DNA of 64,000 bases, taken from positions 11,390 to 75,389 of IMG/VR virus record IMGVR_UViG_3300014838_000020; one strand, written 5' to 3'. Position 1 is the first letter of the stretch. Each line of letters opens with the position of its first letter. A model generated the notes under the pieces. The model saw nothing but the letters and a program-made list of their open reading frames with translations, did not search any database and was not told the DNA's origin. Position numbers and translations under genes: made by a program. Shown piece by piece: positions 4,367 through 50,064 of the stretch. Source of the DNA: a virus.

Positions 4367-7135
4367 ATGGCTCTCGGTCAGAACGAACAGTTTTTCTATT
4401 CCCCAGACGTTAGAATATTCATTAATAGTCTAACACAGGGTGGTATTATAGAAGTAAGCGATGACTTTATGTCCCTTACTATAGAGCGTAATATCAATGC
4501 AGTTAGTACCGCTAGTATATATTTAGCTAACAATGGTTTTAAATACACTCCAGCATCAAAGAATTTTACAGCAGCTAAGGTGCAGTCACCAGTAATTAAT
4601 ACAATGGATGAAATAATAATTTTTCTCAAAAAAGAAAGTTATTATCAGTACTTTACTGGATTCGTGATATATGCACCAATAGTTACTTTGATCCCTGAGC
4701 CAATCGTAATTAATTGTAGTTGTACGCTATATAAAGCTCAAAATAGCTATTGGGATGCTGGGGCAATTGAGTATGAAGGTATCATTCCTGGAATTTTACA
4801 GAATGCACAAATATTCGGTGGTAGCGTACAAAATAATGATGGTGGAGTAGCAACTGGAATAATTAATCTGCTAACGAAAGTAGCTAATTGGACTGCAAAA
4901 GATATTCATATTGGTGGTATTCCATCCCAATGGGTTAGTTTTGCTACTGATATCTATAAGCAAACTCAGATTACATTAAAAGATGAGAATGCTACAAGTT
5001 TCAAAGATATTATAAATTATCTAGAAGTAACCGGTGGTGTTTCTAAGTCGGTGTCCTTGGCAACTACAAAAGGTAAAACTGGTATTGGTAATGGTACCGT
5101 TGCCTCTCTTGGGGTTAAGGGTGCTCCAGAAGGTACTGCTATTTTAGGAATTACTAGCGGTGAAACTATAACTGCCACATTTGATACCATATCTGATTTG
5201 TCTAATAACTCTGGTGCTGATGATATTGTAAAAAATCCTAGTGGCATATCGTATTGGGTAGCTGCACCGTTTACTTACTGGGCTAGTAATGTTGGAGATC
5301 CAACATCTGCTAAACAATGGCTACAAGGAGCCGCAAACCCTGATATATACCCTACTGCAGCACAAATTGGTAGAATACTTCTAATAAGTAATACTGTAAC
5401 CCACAAACACGTTCAAGTCCATGTTGTGTACGCAACACAACAAAAACTTCTTAATGGTGCTGACATCATTTTATCGGAAGCTGCTTTTACCTATCTAGGT
5501 GGAGATCTTTCTCCTGGTGCTCCTAAGACAATAGATAATATCTCTGTTGATGCTTGGGTAAATGCCACTGATGAAACATTAAAAGGTGGACCAGTTGTTC
5601 AAACTGTAGCACCTACAAAGTCAGAACAACCAACACCAGATGGTACTTATCCACAGTGGGAATACAATTTACTTAATCCTACATTGATAAATAGTAGTTT
5701 ATCATCATCAGCACAGTTACCATCAACTACTAGTACCAAAAAGGGTACTAAAGGACAAGAAGCAGCTGCTTGGGCTGCAACACAGATTGGTGGTACCTAC
5801 GTTTGGGGTGGAGGACATGATACAACTGGTGCATCACATGGAAAACCCGGAGATACACAAGATCCAGATTATGCAACTCAACTTGGTTTCGACTGTTCTG
5901 GACTCGTAGGTTGGGCTTGGAGTAAAGCCGGTGTTGATGGACTACTTGGAGATACTGGTGAACAACTTAATTCAAATGTAGGACAGAGAATAGCAGGTTA
6001 TGGTACTATTGATCCAAGTCTTCTAGAGCCTGGTGACCTAATCTTTTATGGTGGAACTGAAGTTCTCCCAGAACATGTTGTAATGTATTACAAGGATGGT
6101 TATGTTGTCGATGCAGAAGATAGTCAAGATGGTATAGTAAAACAACAGTTCTATAATAGTTCCCAATCATTTCCTATACAGGGAGTTAGAAGACCTTCAC
6201 CCAGTAAACAAATTGTTAATTACTCAATTAATATAGGTGGTGGAGGTACCGCTAGCACTGCAACACCAGCAGGTCTAAGTAAGGCTGGTGGCAATTTTAA
6301 CTATAACACTACTCAAGGGGTAGTTGGCTTTGATGTTAATTCAACAGTCCTAGCTGGTAGTCCACGAGCATTTGTAACTGATGTCCCAGTTCTTTCAACC
6401 ATTGGTACTTTATCTACTATGGGTTTAAGAGAATTCCAGAGTGGACCAGATGGTAGCTTTTTGGCTTGGTATCCTGATTATTTTGGACTATATGGAACTG
6501 CTCCAGTACTCAGTATTTATGATATTGAAATAATTGACTTCAGTATTTATCATGATGACACCCAGTTATATACACATATTGGTGTTAGTGGTGACCCAAC
6601 TGAAGTTGGTGATGTTTCTTTGGTTGACTGGCTGATGACTAATGGGATTATAACAATTGAGAATAATGCTGTTTTAGGATTATTATTTGGTACCGATCCT
6701 GCAACCATGCTTACCTCTATGAATAGCTTGTCATCACAAGGAATTAATATTAATACATTTGCCAAGGAATTCCTAAAGAGATATGGTATGAGACCATATG
6801 TTGATTCTGAACCAATGATCCGTTCAGAACTGATGGAATTCATGTATGCCTTACAGGAATTCTTATACTTGTGGTCACAGCAATACGCTACCAACGTTAC
6901 ATTCACTTTTATGCCTGAACTGTATCCTGGAATGATAGCTAACATCGTTGAGCATGGACTCCAAGTCTATGTCCAATCAGTAAGTCAAAGTTGCTCACGA
7001 GATGGAGGGTTTACAACTAGTGCAGTAGTAACATGTCCAACTAGAATTATTGGTAAAAAGAAAGTTAATGGAAAACTTGTAAACAATGTAGTTCCACTTG
7101 ACTTTGGATATCCTATTCAATTACAAAATGGTTAA
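4367..7135 (+). CDS. Baseplate hub protein with NlpC/P60 peptidoglycan endopeptidase domain
   Basis: YVWGGG, GFDCSGLVGWAW (catalytic Cys), LEPGDLIFY and HVVMY motifs; hub-like N- and C-terminal regions (PELYPGM...VQSVSQS). Confidence 0.85.
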   Translation: MALGQNEQFFYSPDVRIFINSLTQGGIIEVSDDFMSLTIERNINAVSTASIYLANNGFKYTPASKNFTAAKVQSPVINTMDEIIIFLKKESYYQYFTGFVIYAPIVTLIPEPIVINCSCTLYKAQNSYWDAGAIEYEGIIPGILQNAQIFGGSVQNNDGGVATGIINLLTKVANWTAKDIHIGGIPSQWVSFATDIYKQTQITLKDENATSFKDIINYLEVTGGVSKSVSLATTKGKTGIGNGTVASLGVKGAPEGTAILGITSGETITATFDTISDLSNNSGADDIVKNPSGISYWVAAPFTYWASNVGDPTSAKQWLQGAANPDIYPTAAQIGRILLISNTVTHKHVQVHVVYATQQKLLNGADIILSEAAFTYLGGDLSPGAPKTIDNISVDAWVNATDETLKGGPVVQTVAPTKSEQPTPDGTYPQWEYNLLNPTLINSSLSSSAQLPSTTSTKKGTKGQEAAAWAATQIGGTYVWGGGHDTTGASHGKPGDTQDPDYATQLGFDCSGLVGWAWSKAGVDGLLGDTGEQLNSNVGQRIAGYGTIDPSLLEPGDLIFYGGTEVLPEHVVMYYKDGYVVDAEDSQDGIVKQQFYNSSQSFPIQGVRRPSPSKQIVNYSINIGGGGTASTATPAGLSKAGGNFNYNTTQGVVGFDVNSTVLAGSPRAFVTDVPVLSTIGTLSTMGLREFQSGPDGSFLAWYPDYFGLYGTAPVLSIYDIEIIDFSIYHDDTQLYTHIGVSGDPTEVGDVSLVDWLMTNGIITIENNAVLGLLFGTDPATMLTSMNSLSSQGININTFAKEFLKRYGMRPYVDSEPMIRSELMEFMYALQEFLYLWSQQYATNVTFTFMPELYPGMIANIVEHGLQVYVQSVSQSCSRDGGFTTSAVVTCPTRIIGKKKVNGKLVNNVVPLDFGYPIQLQNG

Positions 7136-7136
7136 T

Positions 7137-7165
7137 TTGATTAATGTAATGAAATATGGTATAAT
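7137..7165 (+). promoter_or_regulatory. sigma70/SigA-type promoter, near-leaderless, for the 7175 gene
   Basis: TTGATT-17 nt-TATAAT with extended TGn; ATG about 10 nt downstream. Confidence 0.55.
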
Positions 7166-7174
7166 TGATAAATA

Positions 7175-7828
7175 ATGGTTTTAAGTCAAACCTCCCCTCT
7201 TGGCAAATTAGCTGGTGTAACTCGTAGAGTAACATTAATACATGAACCCACCTACTCTACTTCAACAGGTAGTTGGTTAGTTAATGGATTAGATGCTGAT
7301 AAACAACAGTGGCAGATCGATCTAACAGTTCTTCCTCCTGGCATTACAAAAGATATGATTAAGGCTGGCCAACAATGGTTCATAGAACGCTCGACTACCT
7401 ATAATCGTTTATTTAAATATGTTGGAGAATTCGTTGTAGAAAATCAACTCAGAATGAGTACTACACTGCCTCTAAGTTCATGGAAATTTCCTTTAAATAC
7501 ATGGAATAATATAACTTATAATACATATTTGGTAACTCAATCTGGATCAGCTGGTATTACTATTTATAGTGGTGGTACTTTTTATGTGCCATTCCCTGGA
7601 TTATACTCCGTAACTTCATATTTAACGAACTCTGCTGGAACTATTCTTAATCGCGTATATTCTTCTGCATTAGATAGTAATTATCCCACTTCTAATTATA
7701 CCAATACTGAGATTCTCTGCCTAACGAGTGGCAATTTAAGTTTTATAATACAGGGTAATCCTACCGCCAGTGGTCAAATTACTGGTTATGCCTCAATTAC
7801 CTATGCTGGACCGATTATATCCAACTGA
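7175..7828 (+). CDS. Baseplate spike/tail-tip associated protein
   Basis: Between hub and gp25-like wedge; beta-rich C-terminus (GGTFYVPFPGLYSVT, C1q-like). Confidence 0.45.
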   Translation: MVLSQTSPLGKLAGVTRRVTLIHEPTYSTSTGSWLVNGLDADKQQWQIDLTVLPPGITKDMIKAGQQWFIERSTTYNRLFKYVGEFVVENQLRMSTTLPLSSWKFPLNTWNNITYNTYLVTQSGSAGITIYSGGTFYVPFPGLYSVTSYLTNSAGTILNRVYSSALDSNYPTSNYTNTEILCLTSGNLSFIIQGNPTASGQITGYASITYAGPIISN

Positions 7829-7855
7829 AACTTGAATTAGGTACTGAGAGATAAG

Positions 7856-8314
7856 ATGAAGACATTAACTGTGCAGAATGGGGATCTGCAACTCGATAGT
7901 TCAGGTAGATTAACCTTTCAGACGGGTTCCAATAAGTTAGTCCAAGACCTAACTTTATGGCTAGAGGAACCAATCGGTACTGGTTTTACTACGCCTAACT
8001 TTGGTAGTATTCTCCCCAATCTAATTGGACAGGTTTTTACTCCTTATTTATCTGCTCAAATACAAGCTGAAACTTTAAGGATATTTACTCTCTATCAACA
8101 GAATCAAATTTCTGCTCTTAAGAATGCCCAAAATTTGTCACAATTAGGTAATTGGAATAAATCTGAAATTATTAACTCAGTCGATAATATAAGTGTATAC
8201 CCGGATTCTAACCTACCAACAATGATAGATGTAACTGTAGATATTACTACATTGTCCAATACCAGTTTGACCATCAATCTATTTGTCACTTCTAATGGTA
8301 TACAGGTAAGCTAA
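7856..8314 (+). CDS. Baseplate wedge protein (gp25/GPW-like)
   Basis: 'NGDLQLD...KLVQDLTLWLEEPIG...PNFGSIL' pattern; directly upstream of baseplate J. Confidence 0.75.
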   Translation: MKTLTVQNGDLQLDSSGRLTFQTGSNKLVQDLTLWLEEPIGTGFTTPNFGSILPNLIGQVFTPYLSAQIQAETLRIFTLYQQNQISALKNAQNLSQLGNWNKSEIINSVDNISVYPDSNLPTMIDVTVDITTLSNTSLTINLFVTSNGIQVS

Positions 8315-10910: not shown

Positions 10911-11906
10911 ATGTCAGTCGTCTATCCTCTAACTCTCCCCCAAACATTACCGTGGAAGGTTCGAAACTTTCCTGATGACGTATACAATTTTAATCCAACT
11001 GATAATTTAACTCAATTAATGAGCATCGCTCTAGGTGCAGCAGGAACTGGGCAACTAGATCTAATCTACACAGCAGCCCGAATTAATCAAGAGAACCTAG
11101 AGTTCTCTGACCTAGACAATATTTTGGGACTTCTTTTAAACACTCGAAGATTAGTAACAGAGATGTATAATACTGTTAATAATCCATTCACTGACCAGCT
11201 AAGTATTGACAATTGGGAAGATGTCATATCAAAAGATTCAGCCTATAGAGAAAGATTAAATGGCGTTGGCAGTTCCTATCTACAAGGGGCTACTCCAACA
11301 GGTTTAAGAAATATTGCCAATTCTACAAACTCCCTTGAAAATAAGATCATCGAAGTTTGGAATGTAACTACTTCTGGTTTAACAGTTTCTGGTACTAACT
11401 ACAACACCAGAGGCTTTGGCGTTAACGAAACTCTTATTGTCCCGTTAGTACCTGATGATCTAACATTTGATAATGACCTAAAACGAGATACACTACAGAG
11501 TCTTTACAACTTAAAACCTGTTGGTAATATAGTTACAATTACCAGTGGTGTAAATCCATATAATGACTTAGATTACATAGTAACATCGGGGAATTCTGAA
11601 TTTTTCTATCTAGATCGTCAAGTACTTGCTAATGGGGTTAACACACCATCTTCTGTCTTTAATGCAGGCAATACTGCTGTAAGTAGCAGATATTTTTTGA
11701 AAAATAATGTAAACGTCGAAGTACCACAATTTGCTCATATAGTGACGGAAGAATCAATAACTGATGTAACTCTAAACATTTCAACCGTTGCTGTTATTCC
11801 TTTAAGTTCATTGTCAAGTACTGGAGAACTACCAGGGTATAGCACTACATTACCTATTGGTAATCCCAGTTTTTCTATAACAGCTACGGTATATGGCAAC
11901 GCGTAG
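10911..11906 (+). CDS. Baseplate wedge protein (gpI/P2-I-like)
   Basis: Follows baseplate J; 'DLDNILG...DSAYRERL...GATPTGL' pattern. Confidence 0.6.
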   Translation: MSVVYPLTLPQTLPWKVRNFPDDVYNFNPTDNLTQLMSIALGAAGTGQLDLIYTAARINQENLEFSDLDNILGLLLNTRRLVTEMYNTVNNPFTDQLSIDNWEDVISKDSAYRERLNGVGSSYLQGATPTGLRNIANSTNSLENKIIEVWNVTTSGLTVSGTNYNTRGFGVNETLIVPLVPDDLTFDNDLKRDTLQSLYNLKPVGNIVTITSGVNPYNDLDYIVTSGNSEFFYLDRQVLANGVNTPSSVFNAGNTAVSSRYFLKNNVNVEVPQFAHIVTEESITDVTLNISTVAVIPLSSLSSTGELPGYSTTLPIGNPSFSITATVYGNA

Positions 11907-39605: not shown

Positions 39606-40916
39606 TTAATCTCCCACCGTATCTCCAACTGTATCTGCATCCAGATCTAATTCTTTAATTACTTCAATAGATGATTTGTCGTCCATGACATACTCCATTA
39701 GATAAGATTTTAAACTACTTCGTCTAGATTTTAGAATTTCAAATACTTTAACTTCTTGTTTCATCATTTCTTGAGTGGCAGAAATACCTATAGCCATACT
39801 AACATTTTGTTCAATCTGTGAAGACAAAGCAATATGCTGCAGTCCACCACGTTGATTCTTCTTATTTTGTGAATCTCTGTTGAATTGAACGAGCCAAATA
39901 CTTGCTAGATTCATTTCCTTATTAATTCTAGTGATATCAACGATGAGTTCACCCATCTGTGCTGTCTGGGCATTATTGTTGCCTCTATAACTACCCTCTG
40001 GGGTTAACCAACTTAACTGGTCACCTATTACTAATTCTGCACCCCAAAGTTTTGCTCTACTATATAGATCTTGTACGGTTCGTTCAGATGCATGAGAAGG
40101 AGTATCGATAAGTAGGTTATCACCAAATGATTCAATCTCTGTCCGAGCACTTTTAAGTTGCTCTAACTCTAGAGAGTTTAGCTCTCCTCTTTCATATTTG
40201 GAAAAACTAACACCACTTACTAGACAGTCCAACCGCTTTAGTTCCAGCTCTTTATCGAGCTCAAGATTCAACAGATAAACTTTTGTACCACGGCGAGCAG
40301 CTTCTAGAGCTAACTTTGCACCAGTTAAGGATTTACCAATTCCAGTGTAACCAACAATTACTGCTAGTTCCCCTGGATGAATACCATATAGTTGGTCATT
40401 AATTAGATCCCAACCGAAATAAATGCCCTTACGTTTTTTTGATTTTTCTAAATCAATTGTAGAATCAATATACTCATCTACTCTATGTTGGAATCTATCT
40501 TTATATACTTCAATACGTTCTCTAGTTGAAGTATCTTCTTGAACTTTAGATAATCTTGATATAGCAATATTAATTGCTTTTTCTGGATCATCATCTAAAG
40601 CATCAGCTGATTCCAAAAGAATTTTTTGTACGTTGGCTCTACGATATTTCTCTAACAGATCATTAGTAATAATATGAACCAGATATTCTTCATCAGGCCA
40701 TCCAGTAGTATTAAAATAACTTTCAAACTTTATTTTCAAAAGATTTTCAGTTGGTGCTGTTTTAAATTCTGATTTAATTAAGTAATCTAAAGCAAATTTG
40801 TATATTTCTCTAATAGAATTATCGAAAAAATGCTCAGATCTTACACCTTTATCCCACAGATACTGTAGGTCGTTAATATTGACAAAATTCCTAATTGCTG
40901 TATATTCTAAATCCAT
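39606..40916 (-). CDS. dnaB: Replicative helicase
   Basis: GELAVIVGYTGIGKS Walker A, NLEL, GDQL, QFNR, IEQ and KSRR motifs. Confidence 0.9.
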   Translation of the reverse strand: MDLEYTAIRNFVNINDLQYLWDKGVRSEHFFDNSIREIYKFALDYLIKSEFKTAPTENLLKIKFESYFNTTGWPDEEYLVHIITNDLLEKYRRANVQKILLESADALDDDPEKAINIAISRLSKVQEDTSTRERIEVYKDRFQHRVDEYIDSTIDLEKSKKRKGIYFGWDLINDQLYGIHPGELAVIVGYTGIGKSLTGAKLALEAARRGTKVYLLNLELDKELELKRLDCLVSGVSFSKYERGELNSLELEQLKSARTEIESFGDNLLIDTPSHASERTVQDLYSRAKLWGAELVIGDQLSWLTPEGSYRGNNNAQTAQMGELIVDITRINKEMNLASIWLVQFNRDSQNKKNQRGGLQHIALSSQIEQNVSMAIGISATQEMMKQEVKVFEILKSRRSSLKSYLMEYVMDDKSSIEVIKELDLDADTVGDTVGD

Positions 40917-41955: not shown

Positions 41956-42367
41956 AATCTTCTCCGTCTAAAGTTCCAGTAGCCGTTGATGGCTTATTCT
42001 TTTTATTGCGTTCTTCCCACAGTGCATTAAATAAAATGTCCTGTATCCACTTAGCTCCCTTTGAAAATCCAGTAGCTGTAATAATATTACCATTAATATT
42101 ACCCTTGAACTTATCAAACAGGACATCAATTATTTCAGGTGCATCTACTCCATATCGAGCCATAAAACCTTTGATACAAGAAGTCTCTTTATCCCACTCG
42201 ATAATGTAAGGGATATTATGTGTTTCTTCAAATCTCTTTGCAAAATATACTAAGAGATCTCTAGGTTTTGTTAAATCTAATTTACGTTCAGTAGAGGTTT
42301 CAACAATGGTAGGTTCGGCTTTTTCATTGTCACTATTATCGTTCTGTATCTCCCATGATTCTGGCAT
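41933..42367 (-). CDS. Hypothetical protein (replication initiator candidate; start probably MPESW)
   Basis: Directly upstream of and overlapping the DnaC-like gene. Confidence 0.4.
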   Translation of the reverse strand: MPESWEIQNDNSDNEKAEPTIVETSTERKLDLTKPRDLLVYFAKRFEETHNIPYIIEWDKETSCIKGFMARYGVDAPEIIDVLFDKFKGNINGNIITATGFSKGAKWIQDILFNALWEERNKKNKPSTATGTLDGEDFVNLMGK

Positions 42368-42758
42368 TCTTATTTTCCCTATCTTCTTTAAGTGACTTAT
42401 TGAAAGCGTAAGAAACATTAGCAAAGTTTTTAACTTTGTTTTCTATTTCCTCTGCCTCATCCTTGTTCAAATCCTTGATTGATGTACCTGTTGGTGAAAT
42501 TAATGTAATGCTCTCTTTAGAGATTAGATGAAAAGAATAATCATGTTCTACATCCCCATCATTTTCAGCTCCCCATACCTGTACCCAATATTCATCCAAT
42601 CCAGCTAAAAAACCTGAGATAGCATAACCATCTGCAATGATCTGAATTTTTTGTCGCTTCATAGCCCAAAGAGAAAGATTTCTTTCGAACATATCTTCCG
42701 ATTCTTGAGCTAATCTTTGATGAATTCCCATTGTTGCTGTTGTTACTGTTTCTGACAT
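42336..42758 (-). CDS. Hypothetical protein (possible Sm/Hfq-like beta fold)
   Basis: 'IQIIADGYAISGFLAGLDEYWVQV...LISKESITLI' recalls Sm1/Sm2 motifs. Confidence 0.4.
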   Translation of the reverse strand: MSETVTTATMGIHQRLAQESEDMFERNLSLWAMKRQKIQIIADGYAISGFLAGLDEYWVQVWGAENDGDVEHDYSFHLISKESITLISPTGTSIKDLNKDEAEEIENKVKNFANVSYAFNKSLKEDRENKNARIMGDTER

Positions 42759-42780: not shown

Positions 42781-42939
42781 CTAATCTTGACATTCAAGAT
42801 CAATGTAATTTGTTAGAAAGAAATTAACTACTTCCATTGGATCTTTATCGGCCCAACTTTCTAGTTCACTTATATAGCCACATGCCATATGGAATAGCTT
42901 CTTGTAATCGTATGTAGCTTCTGCTACGTCAGCACTCAT
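42781..42939 (-). CDS. Small hypothetical protein (52 aa, not in ORF track)
   Basis: MSADVAEATYDY...LECQD* with GAGGAG RBS. Confidence 0.5.
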   Translation of the reverse strand: MSADVAEATYDYKKLFHMACGYISELESWADKDPMEVVNFFLTNYIDLECQD

Positions 42940-42971: not shown

Positions 42972-43388
42972 TTATTTAGTATACACTACTTCATCATCGG
43001 AGTCAAGTACCCCGGCCTCTCGAAAATCTATTTTTGCTTGGATTAAATGGCCTTTCATGTTCTTAGTTCCATACCCTCCAGGGAATAGTATAGCGTAATC
43101 AATTCCTGATTTGATCATTTCTTCATTACGTACATTGCCCCCAGCCTTACCGTACTTAGACCAGTTAGCCGGATGCGGTTCTACTGTAAAGTTATTATAT
43201 GTAGCCCACATTGCAGCTATTCGATCAACCCCACCGGCATCTCCATGAACAACAGTTATTCCTGCATCCGTTTCTTCCCAAGTTTCTTGTTCTTCACTCC
43301 ACTCGTTAACGAACCATTCAGTTAATGTCTGTTCAATAAATCTATAAGCGTAAAAATCTCTTCCACCGGCAACTAATAATCTAAACAT
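42972..43388 (-). CDS. YspA/DUF2493 SLOG-family protein
   Basis: RLLVAGGRDF, VVHGDAGGVD, PANWSKYGKAGGNVRNEEM, FPGGYGT. Confidence 0.85.
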   Translation of the reverse strand: MFRLLVAGGRDFYAYRFIEQTLTEWFVNEWSEEQETWEETDAGITVVHGDAGGVDRIAAMWATYNNFTVEPHPANWSKYGKAGGNVRNEEMIKSGIDYAILFPGGYGTKNMKGHLIQAKIDFREAGVLDSDDEVVYTK

Positions 43389-43397
43389 TTTACTCCT

Positions 43398-44429
43398 TTA
43401 CATATCATTAAAGATATCAAAATCCGATTGCTCATCTACAGAGTCCCAAAAATCTAGGGAATGCATTGAACCAATATTGCAAATTCTACTGGGCATGTTA
43501 AATTCTACCATAGAAACTACCTCTTGATCACATGGATCTACAGCAATTGTCGAAGTGTCATTTCTTAACATGCTGATTAGTTCGTTAGCATCATTTATAG
43601 ACTTTGCTATATATATTCTTATATCTCCGTAAAGATTATTGATTTGAAAAGAGTTAACACCTTTTATAACATGAAGATAACGAGATATTTTTTCTTTAGT
43701 AATAAATCGTATTAGATTTGCTTGCTGTACAAAATTTAGTTTTGATCGAAATTCTTCTATTTGTTCTCCATAGACTGAACTGTATATATCACTAATTTTA
43801 GTTAGAATTTCTTGATTTGGTTCCCCAATAAATATATAGAATTTAGGAGATAATGAACCAAGCCCATAAAAATTGAAGAAATCAAAACAAATGTTATCAA
43901 TTAATGTATCTGTTATAGAGTTACTATTGACTACTCCAAAGGATAGTTTATCTTCATGAGTGTGAATTCTACGATGCTTAGTTGCTAATGTCTTATAATA
44001 TTCTATAGTTTCATAATTACCAAAAACTATAATATCTGTTGCATTATCAATTGTATTTCTCCAACTAGAAGATAACTCTACTTCTTGATCAGTGCCTATG
44101 TGTACACTAGTTTTAATTTCATAAGTATTATGATTTTTAATAATATTTTCTATAATTAAAGCTTCATCCAATGATGATGGCTTTATGTCTATAGTATCTG
44201 CACCACTAAGTTGCAGTGCCAAAAATACACTTTTAGAAATTGTTAGTGGTGTACCATCTGATCCTATTAGTACTATTTTTCGTTTGGTTTTATTATTATG
44301 CTGATTAAAGTAAGGTGGTATAAAACTATTACTAATTAATCGTTCATAATCACTTTCTAAAAATTCACCAAATTGACTTAAAATTGATGAAAGATTATTA
44401 TCATTATTAATATAATAATTATTATTCAT
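43398..44429 (-). CDS. LuxC-like acyl-CoA/acyl-protein reductase homolog, catalytic Cys apparently replaced
   Basis: 'DIIVFGNYETI', 'KLSFGVV', 'GLGSLSPK' (family GCxSP), 'SRICNIGSMH...WDSVD'. Confidence 0.65.
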   Translation of the reverse strand: MNNNYYINNDNNLSSILSQFGEFLESDYERLISNSFIPPYFNQHNNKTKRKIVLIGSDGTPLTISKSVFLALQLSGADTIDIKPSSLDEALIIENIIKNHNTYEIKTSVHIGTDQEVELSSSWRNTIDNATDIIVFGNYETIEYYKTLATKHRRIHTHEDKLSFGVVNSNSITDTLIDNICFDFFNFYGLGSLSPKFYIFIGEPNQEILTKISDIYSSVYGEQIEEFRSKLNFVQQANLIRFITKEKISRYLHVIKGVNSFQINNLYGDIRIYIAKSINDANELISMLRNDTSTIAVDPCDQEVVSMVEFNMPSRICNIGSMHSLDFWDSVDEQSDFDIFNDM

Positions 44430-44436
44430 ATTAATC

Positions 44437-45465
44437 TTACTTTGGCTTAATACCAGTTTTGATTATTTCATCAGATCGTCTGGTTATTTGTACTGTGCTA
44501 TTACTATACTGAATGCCTAAATCATCACTAATTATGAATGGACAACTCCATACATTAGCTATATCAATAAAAGCTAAATTACCTTCAACTCCAGGTTCAC
44601 ATTCTTCTCCTGTAGTGGGATCTAGTACTCGTACAGAAATAGTAGGTGGCACATAATATGTGAGATTATCTCCCCATCTAAATAATTGACTTGATAGTTC
44701 AGTATTATAGTATATCTGAATTACATCATTTGTAGGAGTATTGAAGTATTTTTTTAGCCAATCATTTAATTCAAAAAGAGTTAAATCCATCTTTGATAAC
44801 TCATAGTAATCCCCAAATTGAAGAATCATTGATGTACCAGAAGTTATATCTATAATAGGATTAGAAGTTAAAGTATCTAGTGTTAACTTAAATTGATAAA
44901 ATTGATTTGGTGTACCTACAATCATTAGTGGTTCATCTGATATTAAACTCTTAGAAGATGTAAATGCTTCTACCGCCTTAGGATCAGTTGGATTTACAGT
45001 CTCATAGATTCCACGAGAACCATATATTAAGAATAAATATTCCCAGATATATGATAAGAGAGAATTAGGTTTTTTATCATCGAGAAAAACAATTCTATTA
45101 GAATTACTAATACTTATTACACTAAAATTAAAATTACTAGTTATTGATGCTCTAAGAAATTCAGTATCTCTTAACACATGATGCTTTGGTTTATTACTCT
45201 GTGAAATGAATTCAATTTCATTAGTAGGATCAAACCCATTAAAGTTATTTAACTGCAATTTTCTCTTAGAAAACTCATAAGAAGGTACTAATGGTATTTT
45301 ACGCCAATCATCTAATTTACCAATAGAATATTTTTTATAGTTCTTATTATGTAAACGATGTAAATCATAGAGATCTAAGGCTATATCACCAAAATTAAAT
45401 TTGTCTGGATTTTTGATATACTCTTTTGTATTATTTAGTATACTATTTATTTTATCGATTTTCAT
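44437..45465 (-). CDS. LuxE-like acyl-protein synthetase homolog, degenerate active site
   Basis: 'IALDLY...N..Y...WRKIPLVP...F', 'YYNTELSSQ' (family YGMTELxSQ), 'PP..VRVLDP...GVEGNLAFIDIANVWSCPFIISDDLG'. Confidence 0.75.
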   Translation of the reverse strand: MKIDKINSILNNTKEYIKNPDKFNFGDIALDLYDLHRLHNKNYKKYSIGKLDDWRKIPLVPSYEFSKRKLQLNNFNGFDPTNEIEFISQSNKPKHHVLRDTEFLRASITSNFNFSVISISNSNRIVFLDDKKPNSLLSYIWEYLFLIYGSRGIYETVNPTDPKAVEAFTSSKSLISDEPLMIVGTPNQFYQFKLTLDTLTSNPIIDITSGTSMILQFGDYYELSKMDLTLFELNDWLKKYFNTPTNDVIQIYYNTELSSQLFRWGDNLTYYVPPTISVRVLDPTTGEECEPGVEGNLAFIDIANVWSCPFIISDDLGIQYSNSTVQITRRSDEIIKTGIKPK

Positions 45466-46415
45466 TGAAGTCTCTTACCAATATTAAATTTGTACCATAA
45501 CAGCAAATTTTGCCAATCCTGTAATATTGTATGAAACTCTAATTGATTTAATAACTCTTTGAACTGGGGAGCCTTAAAGTCATCAGGCATAGTAGGATCA
45601 AACTTTAGATCTTCCATACTAACCGATGGGAACTCCTCTTGGTTATCTAGTTTGATTAGTTTATAAGCTAGCTCAACACTATTCTTTTGAGTTTTTATAT
45701 ACTCATCATTAGCTAATACATTATCAAGTGAACCATAGGTTTCCATTAAACCAGCAGCTTTAACTGGTCCAATATTTTTAGCACCAGCAATTCCGTCTGA
45801 TTTATCGCCCATTAAACTCCATAATTCTGGTAATTGTTCTGGAGTTAAATTATATTTACTAATAACAGCATCATAATCAATTATCTCTTCTTTAATATTT
45901 TTACTAAGACCCAAAGAAGGTTTCAAAACTGTAACATTGGGTCGTATAAGTTGTAACATATCATGATCCAAAGAAACTATTATTACTTCATCGAACTCAT
46001 CTGCAAAATCAATTGAGATTTTTGCAATTATATCATCTGCTTCTACACCACTGAACATCCTTTGGCATATATTTGCAGCATCCATCAAAGAATATACCAT
46101 ATCTCTTTGAGGAGAAAACTCATCTGGATAATCTGGATCGTTCTTTAAATTATCTTTTAATTTTTGTTGTCGTCTACGTTCACGATTAGCTTTATATTCT
46201 GGATATAAATCCCTTCGTTTTTGAGATCTACCTTTATCAAAGGCTACAATCATATGAGTTGGTTCTAAGCGTTTAGTTAAATAACTTATAGTATTTAGAA
46301 AACCATAAACACCCCAAGTTGGTTCGTTTTTGGAGTTACGAAGATCATGTACACGTAATGACGTGTAGGCTCTCAGCAACAATGAAGTGCCATCTAGAAT
46401 TAATAGCTTTTTAAT
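45462..46415 (-). CDS. 5'-3' exonuclease/flap endonuclease (PolA N-terminal/T4 RNase H-like); probable ATT start
   Basis: KLLILDG (upstream of the called start), AFDKG, YKANR, EADDII, DHDMLQL, GDKSDGIAGAKNIGP. Confidence 0.9.
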   Translation of the reverse strand: MKKLLILDGTSLLLRAYTSLRVHDLRNSKNEPTWGVYGFLNTISYLTKRLEPTHMIVAFDKGRSQKRRDLYPEYKANRERRRQQKLKDNLKNDPDYPDEFSPQRDMVYSLMDAANICQRMFSGVEADDIIAKISIDFADEFDEVIIVSLDHDMLQLIRPNVTVLKPSLGLSKNIKEEIIDYDAVISKYNLTPEQLPELWSLMGDKSDGIAGAKNIGPVKAAGLMETYGSLDNVLANDEYIKTQKNSVELAYKLIKLDNQEEFPSVSMEDLKFDPTMPDDFKAPQFKELLNQLEFHTILQDWQNLLLWYKFNIGKRLQ

Positions 46416-46426
46416 AGTTAATATAT

Positions 46427-46455
46427 AGTATATAACATTTATGTTACTTTGTCAA
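46427..46455 (-). promoter_or_regulatory. Promoter for the exonuclease-LuxE-LuxC-SLOG operon
   Basis: TTGACA-17 nt-TATACT. Confidence 0.8.
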
Positions 46456-49626: not shown

Positions 49627-50064
49627 TTATTCATTTTCTTTTCCTTCATTAATTAGTTTACCATCTAAATGTCTAATTTCATGTAAAGCTACTCTTGCTT
49701 CAAAATCATGGAATATTTCATGATGTTCATTGCCTTCAATATCCTGATAGGATATAACTACTTCTTCAATAGAAGGGCGTATGTAGCCTTTCTTACCGTA
49801 TTCGATAGAAAGACAGCCTTCTAATGCGTAGGTAATACTTCCTCGTTGATCAATAATAGTAGGATTAACTAAGAAATTATCTCCTACTAGACAGGCTCTA
49901 ACGTTTTGGCCTAATTGATTAGCAGCAATACCTACTGCATTATATTCTTGCATCACTTCTGTTAGTGTTTGATGAACATGTGGTAAACCACCGAATTCGT
50001 CTATGTGTAATTCTGGTACTGGAACATTAAGAGATGGATCTGGATATTGAACTATATCAGTCAT
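49627..50064 (-). CDS. def: Peptide deformylase
   Basis: GIAANQLG, EGCLS and HEIRHLDG motifs. Confidence 0.93.
   Translation of the reverse strand: MTDIVQYPDPSLNVPVPELHIDEFGGLPHVHQTLTEVMQEYNAVGIAANQLGQNVRACLVGDNFLVNPTIIDQRGSITYALEGCLSIEYGKKGYIRPSIEEVVISYQDIEGNEHHEIFHDFEARVALHEIRHLDGKLINEGKENE

Follow-up and report, generated by a model that had tools for sequence, protein, structure and literature searches.

A LuxE-like and LuxC-like gene pair, probably left over from a lost DNA-base-modification pathway, is kept under purifying selection in the replication operon of uncultured phages

We analysed a 64,000-nucleotide stretch of viral DNA (hereafter the window), which covers positions 11,390 to 75,389 of IMG/VR record IMGVR_UViG_3300014838_000020, a 75-kb record rated 48% complete. 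The subject is a pair of adjacent genes on its minus strand, which an earlier note on this DNA, made from the sequence alone, had described as intact, AT-rich open reading frames (ORFs) in luxE-luxC order, both apparently stripped of catalytic residues. Both ORFs are indeed intact, the first (44437..45465) encoding a LuxE-like protein of 342 amino acids (aa) and the second (43398..44429) a LuxC-like protein of 343 aa. Each gene has a G+C content of 0.28, compared to 0.36 for the whole window, and G+C at third codon positions (GC3) is 0.15-0.16. Proteins identical to the pair are also encoded on a 154,579-bp contig, and DNA of the window was found again in peat and permafrost metagenomes of many studies.

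The LuxE-like protein matches Pfam family PF04443 (E 4.2e-10, 39.5 bits against a cut-off of 24.9), and a profile of its family aligns over the full length with the solved LuxE 7xc6_E (E 2.7e-24). Its AlphaFold2 model (pLDDT 83) adopts the PaaK/ANL large-domain fold, with the large domains of PaaK, ClxA and EhpF as best structural matches (Z 20-22; for PaaK1, Z 22.3 with a root-mean-square deviation of 3.8 over 291 aligned residues). Within this fold, all three catalytic signatures of LuxE are lost. The ATP-binding P-loop, which reads FHSSGTTQGDKSKH in intact relatives, is represented by the remnant FISQSNKPKHH with a 3-residue deletion (45178..45210, minus strand, as are all features of the window given below). 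The GGxK motif has given way to QFGDYYELSK, which replaces ETGGWKGR (44791..44820) and is conserved across the window clade as a new motif, and the C-terminal segment GR...KGCS is replaced by the truncated tail TRRSDEIIKTGIKPK (44440..44484), in which the acyl-acceptor Cys has become Ile (...KTGIKPK). Furthermore, IYYNTE is found at the position of the YxMxE motif. The strings FISQSNK, YYNTE and KTGI that had been read from the sequence earlier are exact, and the QFGDYYELS change is additional to them.

In the LuxE-like alignment, in which the window clade (22 clusters, 65-85% identity) is set against distant members (27-40%), every window-clade protein carries F-I-S-x-x-x-K-x-K-H-H, with the 3-residue deletion, for FxSSGTTxxxxSxH, QFGDYxELS for ETGGWKGR, and ...KTG[IV]xPK for GR...KGCS, whereas the canonical P-loop, GGxK and GC forms are kept by all 6 distant members. 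The [ST]SGT[TS] P-loop is missing in all 22 close relatives, and its three central positions vary within the clade. Among a wider set of 152 LuxE sequences, comprising 148 representatives from a search of 1.84 billion proteins and 4 reference sequences, the SGT-type loop, GGxK and GC are kept in all but 7, namely 2 window-clade sequences and 5 other degenerate clusters. The family signature ANVWSCPF (44536..44559) is invariant in dead and intact phage LuxE-like proteins. P-loop loss in ANL enzymes abolishes adenylation, and with P-loop, GGxK and terminal Cys gone, the LuxE-like protein of the window would no longer be able to adenylate a substrate or to carry an acyl thioester.

For the LuxC-like protein, the match to PF05893 stays below threshold (E 0.09, 12.1 bits against a cut-off of 21), while homologues at 35% identity do match this family. 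Sequence and profile searches against PDB returned marginal aldehyde dehydrogenase (ALDH) matches as well as spurious McrB matches, and placement of the protein needed a fold search. The top structural match of its AlphaFold2 model (pLDDT 89) is LuxC 7xc6_A (Foldseek E 1.7e-9), with Z 26.2 and a root-mean-square deviation of 3.2 over 330 aligned residues, followed by an ALDH with Z 23.7. The kinship to LuxE and LuxC that had been proposed is thereby borne out for both proteins. Residues 2-343 of the model superpose on residues 70-454 of 7xc6_A, so that about 70 N-terminal LuxC residues are missing; the shortening reported in the earlier note is real, but it is not special to the dead pair, as catalytically intact phage relatives share it. 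At the ALDH catalytic Cys position (motif GQT-C-VAP), the LuxC-like protein has Ser192 (codon 43854..43856), within YGLGSLSPKF compared to YGEGCLSPKF in intact relatives, which agrees with the earlier reading of GSLSP for GCxSP. This position is Ser or Thr across the whole window clade, and the motif TDIIVFG in the Rossmann region is invariant. The Cys is the sole essential active-site residue of LuxC, in which Cys296 receives the acyl group from LuxE Cys364 (ALDH superfamily review, PMC12041015). With Ser in its place, the LuxC-like protein of the window would no longer be able to accept a thioester. Since three LuxE signatures and the LuxC Cys are lost, the canonical chemistry is excluded for the window. 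Neither PHROGs nor PADLOC yielded a family for either protein.

Pfam confirmed the neighbours that had been named for the pair, a FEN-like 5'-3' exonuclease gene upstream (45462..46382; PF02739, E 1.8e-35; PF01367, E 3.5e-15) and a gene for a SLOG (YAcAr) protein downstream (42972..43388; PF10686, E 1.4e-12; phrog_289). The exonuclease stop and the LuxE-like start overlap as ATGA, 7 nt separate the LuxE-like from the LuxC-like gene, and the 9-nt gap between the LuxC-like and SLOG genes holds AGGAG. Upstream of the exonuclease gene lies a promoter-like site, TTGACA-17-TATACT (46427..46455), which fits 11 of the 12 consensus positions, and no terminator-like site was found on the minus strand from there up to the SLOG gene. 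It is plausible that the four genes share this single candidate promoter, as had been suggested; the abutting or overlapping genes speak for it, while the promoter itself is unproven, being a consensus match only. Exactly matching contigs from 4 peat metatranscriptome libraries cover the exonuclease gene in part, as well as the junctions exonuclease/LuxE-like and LuxC-like/SLOG (stretches of the locus without such cover are uninformative either way), which lends weak support to co-transcription. RNA-library pieces of 31-33 nt at 44394-44427 were discarded as other organisms', as they have 3 mismatches and continue into unrelated sequence. In every lineage, the LuxE/LuxC-like genes have the exonuclease gene as their upstream neighbour, with synteny kept in all related loci. 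The SLOG gene, in contrast, does not accompany the pair consistently, as it is absent from the relative L013 (our locus number) and from most other lineages, including nearly all of the loci described below that have a LuxC-like gene alone; a functional tie of the pair to SLOG, as envisaged in the earlier note, is unsupported.

The base composition of the pair raises the question of its source. In every window-clade phage (the window and loci L012-L014), the pair lies 5-8 G+C points under its own locus (0.26-0.30 compared to 0.33-0.36), and this holds for the window clade only, as the intact pair of sister phages equals the locus average. Values of G+C and GC3 under those of the flanking genes would suit a recently acquired, foreign AT-rich cassette that is unrelated to its neighbours. 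However, the same slot, from the exonuclease to the Hfq-like gene, is used in every related phage, the window clade is nested inside the phage family in trees, and searches for a close source among bacteria or isolate phages found none. We disfavour such an acquisition and regard it as the least probable of the explanations considered. Neither the pair nor a distant LuxC-like protein had a match when isolate-phage DNA and proteins were searched, and uncultured phages of peat, permafrost and freshwater are the only known carriers of the family.

Relatives at approximately 35% identity keep all motifs, and a survey of 39 IMG/VR loci revealed their genomic setting. Loci with an intact LuxE share the order DpdA-like, exonuclease, LuxE, LuxC, class-III aminotransferase, QueD, QueE, FolE and dCTP-deaminase-like, preceded upstream by 2-3 amidoligases, a methyltransferase, PanD and UvdE. 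Such a 7-deazaguanine island, with intact LuxE and a LuxC that retains its Cys, lies in sister phages at L007:2609-15338 and L011:6167-13703 as well as in L002, L003 and L005. The LuxC Cys and the DpdA-like gene were present in 12/12 loci with intact LuxE; aminotransferase, QueD, QueE and FolE were present in 11, and in the twelfth (L052) the contig stops just past the LuxC-like gene. Wherever LuxE is dead or absent, the locus lacks the island. Because of this perfect co-occurrence across independent losses, the intact pair appears functionally tied to the aminotransferase and to the enzymes that form 7-carboxy-7-deazaguanine. The DpdA-like protein (287 aa) has no Pfam match; its assignment follows from a tblastn match to a Flavobacterium phage gene annotated as DNA guanine transglycosylase (E 2e-6, 36% of the protein covered) and from a link in the Atlas to a DpdA cluster. 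Models for QueC, QueF and the Pfam TGT/DpdA family found no match in five sister-phage records that are 51-84% complete.

Judged from this gene content, the intact pair of the sister phages most likely activates a carboxylate and reduces it to an aldehyde, which is then transaminated, and the carboxylate is probably 7-carboxy-7-deazaguanine. The chemistry, from carboxylate through thioester and aldehyde to amine, would constitute a QueC/QueF-independent path to an aminomethyl (preQ1-type) base, which is possibly amidated further. We found no mention of a QueC/QueF-independent LuxE/LuxC/aminotransferase branch in the phage 7-deazaguanine papers that were searched, and the trio of LuxE, LuxC and class-III aminotransferase is not mentioned in PMC10516641.

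The window clade shares the backbone of these phages (DUF7229 protein ... exonuclease, LuxE, LuxC ... Hfq-like, DnaC-like, DnaB, primase), with both island blocks missing. A second lineage with a dead LuxE is represented by the genome G006 (loci L056-L062 and L020), which is 124,688 bp long, 100% complete and terminally repeated. It keeps the exonuclease, the dead LuxE, a LuxC with Thr at the Cys position, and a FolE gene that adjoins the pair; genome-wide, it holds no aminotransferase, QueD, QueE, DpdA-like or amidoligase gene. Moreover, a monophyletic clade of 22 loci (L021-L032, L035-L039 and L045-L050 in IMG/VR; LuxC-like gene at 7001-8065) has the LuxC-like gene directly after the exonuclease gene, with neither a LuxE-like gene nor the island, and the catalytic Cys position in this LuxC-only clade is C, S, T or R. 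In trees, the dead LuxE groups stand beside different intact relatives, the intact state is basal and paraphyletic for the LuxC-like protein, and LuxE degenerated independently at least 2 times. From tree placement together with the island-less loci, it follows that the island was lost at least 3 times, in the window clade, in the G006 genome, and in the LuxC-only clade; the LuxC-like gene was kept every time and the LuxE-like gene twice. The origin from a 7-deazaguanine island, its recurrent loss, and the large LuxC-only clade are additional to the earlier note.

With a record of 75 kb that is about 48% complete, the pair of the window could in principle serve, in a non-catalytic or altered way, Que and aminotransferase genes located elsewhere in the phage genome, and the survival of FolE beside the dead pair in G006 would be in keeping with this. 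However, other genes occupy the syntenic slots to either side of the pair in 5/5 window-clade loci; FolE, QueD, aminotransferase and DpdA-like genes were not found in the 75-kb record, 48% complete; and the complete G006 is entirely devoid of QueD, QueE, aminotransferase and DpdA-like genes. Service to a relocated island is thus improbable.

That the reading frames are full-length had been taken to speak against decay, and the ratio of nonsynonymous to synonymous substitution rates (dN/dS), well below 1, agrees with this. NG86 values from five window-clade loci are 0.13-0.26 for the LuxE-like and 0.16-0.25 for the LuxC-like gene, compared to 0.06-0.16 for the exonuclease, 0.08-0.23 for primase, 0.15-0.32 for the Hfq-like protein, 0.20-0.39 for SLOG and approximately 0.05 for DnaB, all of which are rough, as dS is close to saturation (0.44-1.2) and YN00 often failed for this reason. 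The dN of the pair relative to the exonuclease gene is approximately 0.8-1.5, in the dead clade and in intact relatives alike. Both genes are held by purifying selection and are not decaying. An AT drift confined to the window clade, the long stem branches (1.21 substitutions per site for the LuxE-like and 1.76 for the LuxC-like protein), and the outright deletion of LuxE in one clade might still suggest relics on their way out, that is, non-functional leftovers of the island whose disruption is yet to come. This is largely refuted, and very improbable, given not only the dN/dS values but also full-length ORFs in at least 22 protein clusters at 65-85% identity, short terminal branches within the clade, and retention of the genes both in a genome that is complete and across three independent lineages.

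The changes in the pair moreover bear the marks of remodelling. At 29 sites of the LuxE-like protein that are invariant among intact proteins, a new residue is conserved within the window clade (e.g., T92K, S94K, E216Q, G219D, K222E and G329R), compared to 10 such sites that became variable, and the former LuxE motif sites are as conserved within the clade as the protein average, which argues for remodelling and not for drift. The long stems combined with short terminal branches are consistent with an episode of rapid change that later gave way to constraint.

This pattern is shared by the main rival explanation, according to which the pair, or the LuxC-like protein alone, is still an enzyme with changed, ATP-independent or non-thioester chemistry; candidates are Cys308 of ANVWSCPF, Cys317 of RxCxxGxM, and a non-covalent NAD(P)H-dependent reduction. 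In the LuxE-like protein, the former ATP pocket moved to new conserved residues without drift, purifying selection is equal in strength to that in intact relatives, and those polar residues that are invariant in the LuxC-like protein sit in the motifs TDIIVFG, SFG, DFFxFYG, PKFY and RxCxxGxM, which, judged from ALDH motif positions, would line the ALDH cleft. On the other hand, the Cys position varies freely (C/S/T/R) in the LuxC-only clade even though the protein is kept, so that this position is dispensable, with no replacement identified; the loss of the P-loop abolishes ANL adenylation, as is general for the superfamily; and the two independently degenerate LuxE lineages have no common new motif set. 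We consider this rival unlikely, although it deserves more weight than those discussed above.

Instead, we favour, with a probability of roughly 55%, the interpretation that the pair descends from a phage LuxE-LuxC module, is catalytically dead and remodelled, and has been retained because of a non-catalytic role in the replication operon. The ancestral phage module would have performed carboxylate reduction by LuxE and LuxC beside an aminotransferase, QueD, QueE, FolE and a DpdA-like transglycosylase. In the lineage of the window, the rest of the island was lost and the pair retained; both proteins would have lost catalysis, yet purifying selection keeps them in the exonuclease-led operon. 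The LuxC-like protein, with cleft residues that are still invariant, would be the retained core, acting non-catalytically as a scaffold or ligand-binding subunit that is co-produced with the 5'-3' exonuclease; the LuxE-like protein would be its remodelled docking partner. We favour such a scaffold or ligand-binding role because the LuxC-like protein is the constant, exonuclease-linked element with invariant residues in its conserved motifs; it is probably translationally coupled to the exonuclease. As enzyme homologues that lack adenylation and thioester residues and evolve under purifying selection, both proteins are pseudoenzymes in the operational sense, with inactivity predicted from sequence. 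The repurposed pseudoenzymes proposed in the earlier note are supported in part, by these features and by the shifted ATP pocket; neither the link to SLOG nor a specific role as a decoy or as a dominant-negative partner of a host complex is supported.

Several points weigh against this interpretation. The catalytic death of the pair is deduced from motifs alone, and invariant Cys residues elsewhere, C308 in ANVWSCPF of the LuxE-like and C317 in RxCxxGxM of the LuxC-like protein, could act as alternative nucleophiles; the invariance of the cleft-lining residues of the LuxC-like protein likewise fits a surviving enzyme of different chemistry. The 22-locus clade lives without LuxE, and the LuxE-like protein is hence not generally needed for the job of the LuxC-like protein. 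Furthermore, the dN/dS values are rough owing to near-saturated dS, the signal from RNA libraries could be DNA carry-over, and the part of the genome missing from the record, which is 48% complete, could harbour island genes.

A broader proposal is put forward tentatively and held with less than even confidence: a phage lineage would have repeatedly turned a carboxylate-reduction module into conserved non-catalytic proteins that serve DNA replication or processing beside the exonuclease, while the ancestral intact module, which has neither QueC nor QueF, would represent a route not described before, which leads from 7-carboxy-7-deazaguanine through the aldehyde to a DNA base of aminomethyl-7-deazaguanine (preQ1) type.

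The pair can be compared with several known systems. Like the LuxC-LuxE fatty acid reductase complex of luminous bacteria (PDB 7XC6; PF04443, PF05893), it combines the same two folds encoded by adjacent genes. Unlike that complex, the LuxE-like protein of the window has no P-loop, GGxK or C-terminal acyl-acceptor Cys, the LuxC-like protein has no active-site Cys and is short by approximately 70 N-terminal residues, and the context is a phage replication operon without LuxD or luciferase; the likely substrate of the intact phage relatives would, moreover, be a deazapurine carboxylate and not a fatty acid. The PaaK-type, ClxA and EhpF adenylate-forming enzymes of the ANL superfamily, the best matches of the LuxE-like model, differ in that the window protein consists of the large N-terminal domain only, with its ATP-binding loop destroyed. 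A parallel for the LuxC-like protein is vertebrate ALDH16A1, an ALDH-fold pseudoenzyme that is conserved without catalytic residues and has been proposed to act in regulation or through protein-protein contacts (PMC12041015). Both are conserved members of the ALDH superfamily lacking catalytic residues; the window protein, however, belongs to the LuxC-type subfamily, is viral, is paired with an equally dead ANL-fold partner, and belongs to a state that arose repeatedly after pathway loss. With phage 7-deazaguanine DNA-modification clusters (FolE/QueD/QueE/QueC/QueF/DpdA; Hutinet 2019, PMC6884629; Cui 2023, PMC10516641), the sister phages share FolE, QueD, QueE and a DpdA-like protein around the intact pair, but they have LuxE, LuxC and a class-III aminotransferase instead of QueC, QueF and a Pfam-detectable TGT/DpdA (five records, 51-84% complete). 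The combination of FolE, QueD and QueE with a DNA transglycosylase that characterises such clusters was not found in the 75-kb record to which the window belongs, which is 48% complete. A scan of genome contigs gave one match in Alistipes, where LuxE lies beside LicD and GT2 genes; this surface-glycan context is uninformative for the pair.

Beyond the SLOG gene lies a 52-aa ORF (42781-42939) that is conserved in all window-clade loci and is preceded by a second promoter-like site, TTGACT-17-TATACT (43006-42978), inside the end of the SLOG gene. Next comes the gene for a phage Hfq-like protein (42336-42758; PF23874, E 5e-9); all related phages conserve it downstream of the pair, with LuxC-like/SLOG before it and the DnaC-like loader after it. 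The nearest isolate relatives of the DnaB helicase (39606-40916) are found in Mycobacterium, Gordonia and Rhodococcus phages of approximately 155 kb, at 31% identity. As for the exonuclease, its ORF was called from a TTG at 46382, and the Pfam match starts at profile position 11. The frame upstream of this start (46382-46420) reads IKKLLILDGTSL, which includes the conserved N-terminal LLxDG and has no ATG, GTG or TTG before it; the true start may be non-canonical. A further ORF (49627-50064), with EGCLS ... HEIRHLDG motifs, resembles a peptide deformylase on reading of its translation alone.

To our knowledge, pseudoenzymes are well documented in eukaryotic signalling and rarely in phages. The phages described here form a natural series, from an intact pair with the full pathway in sister phages, through lineages with a dead pair, to a clade with the LuxC-like protein alone. 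The series reveals the order of events, argues for a second function that outlived the first, and supplies matched active and dead proteins for direct comparison. It also brings to light a candidate branch of DNA modification by 7-deazaguanines in phages that would need neither QueC nor QueF and is of relevance for the evasion of restriction by phages. In the phage of the window, the pair probably represents the leftovers of a lost DNA-base-modification pathway, which have been preserved by selection and would now be doing a new job.

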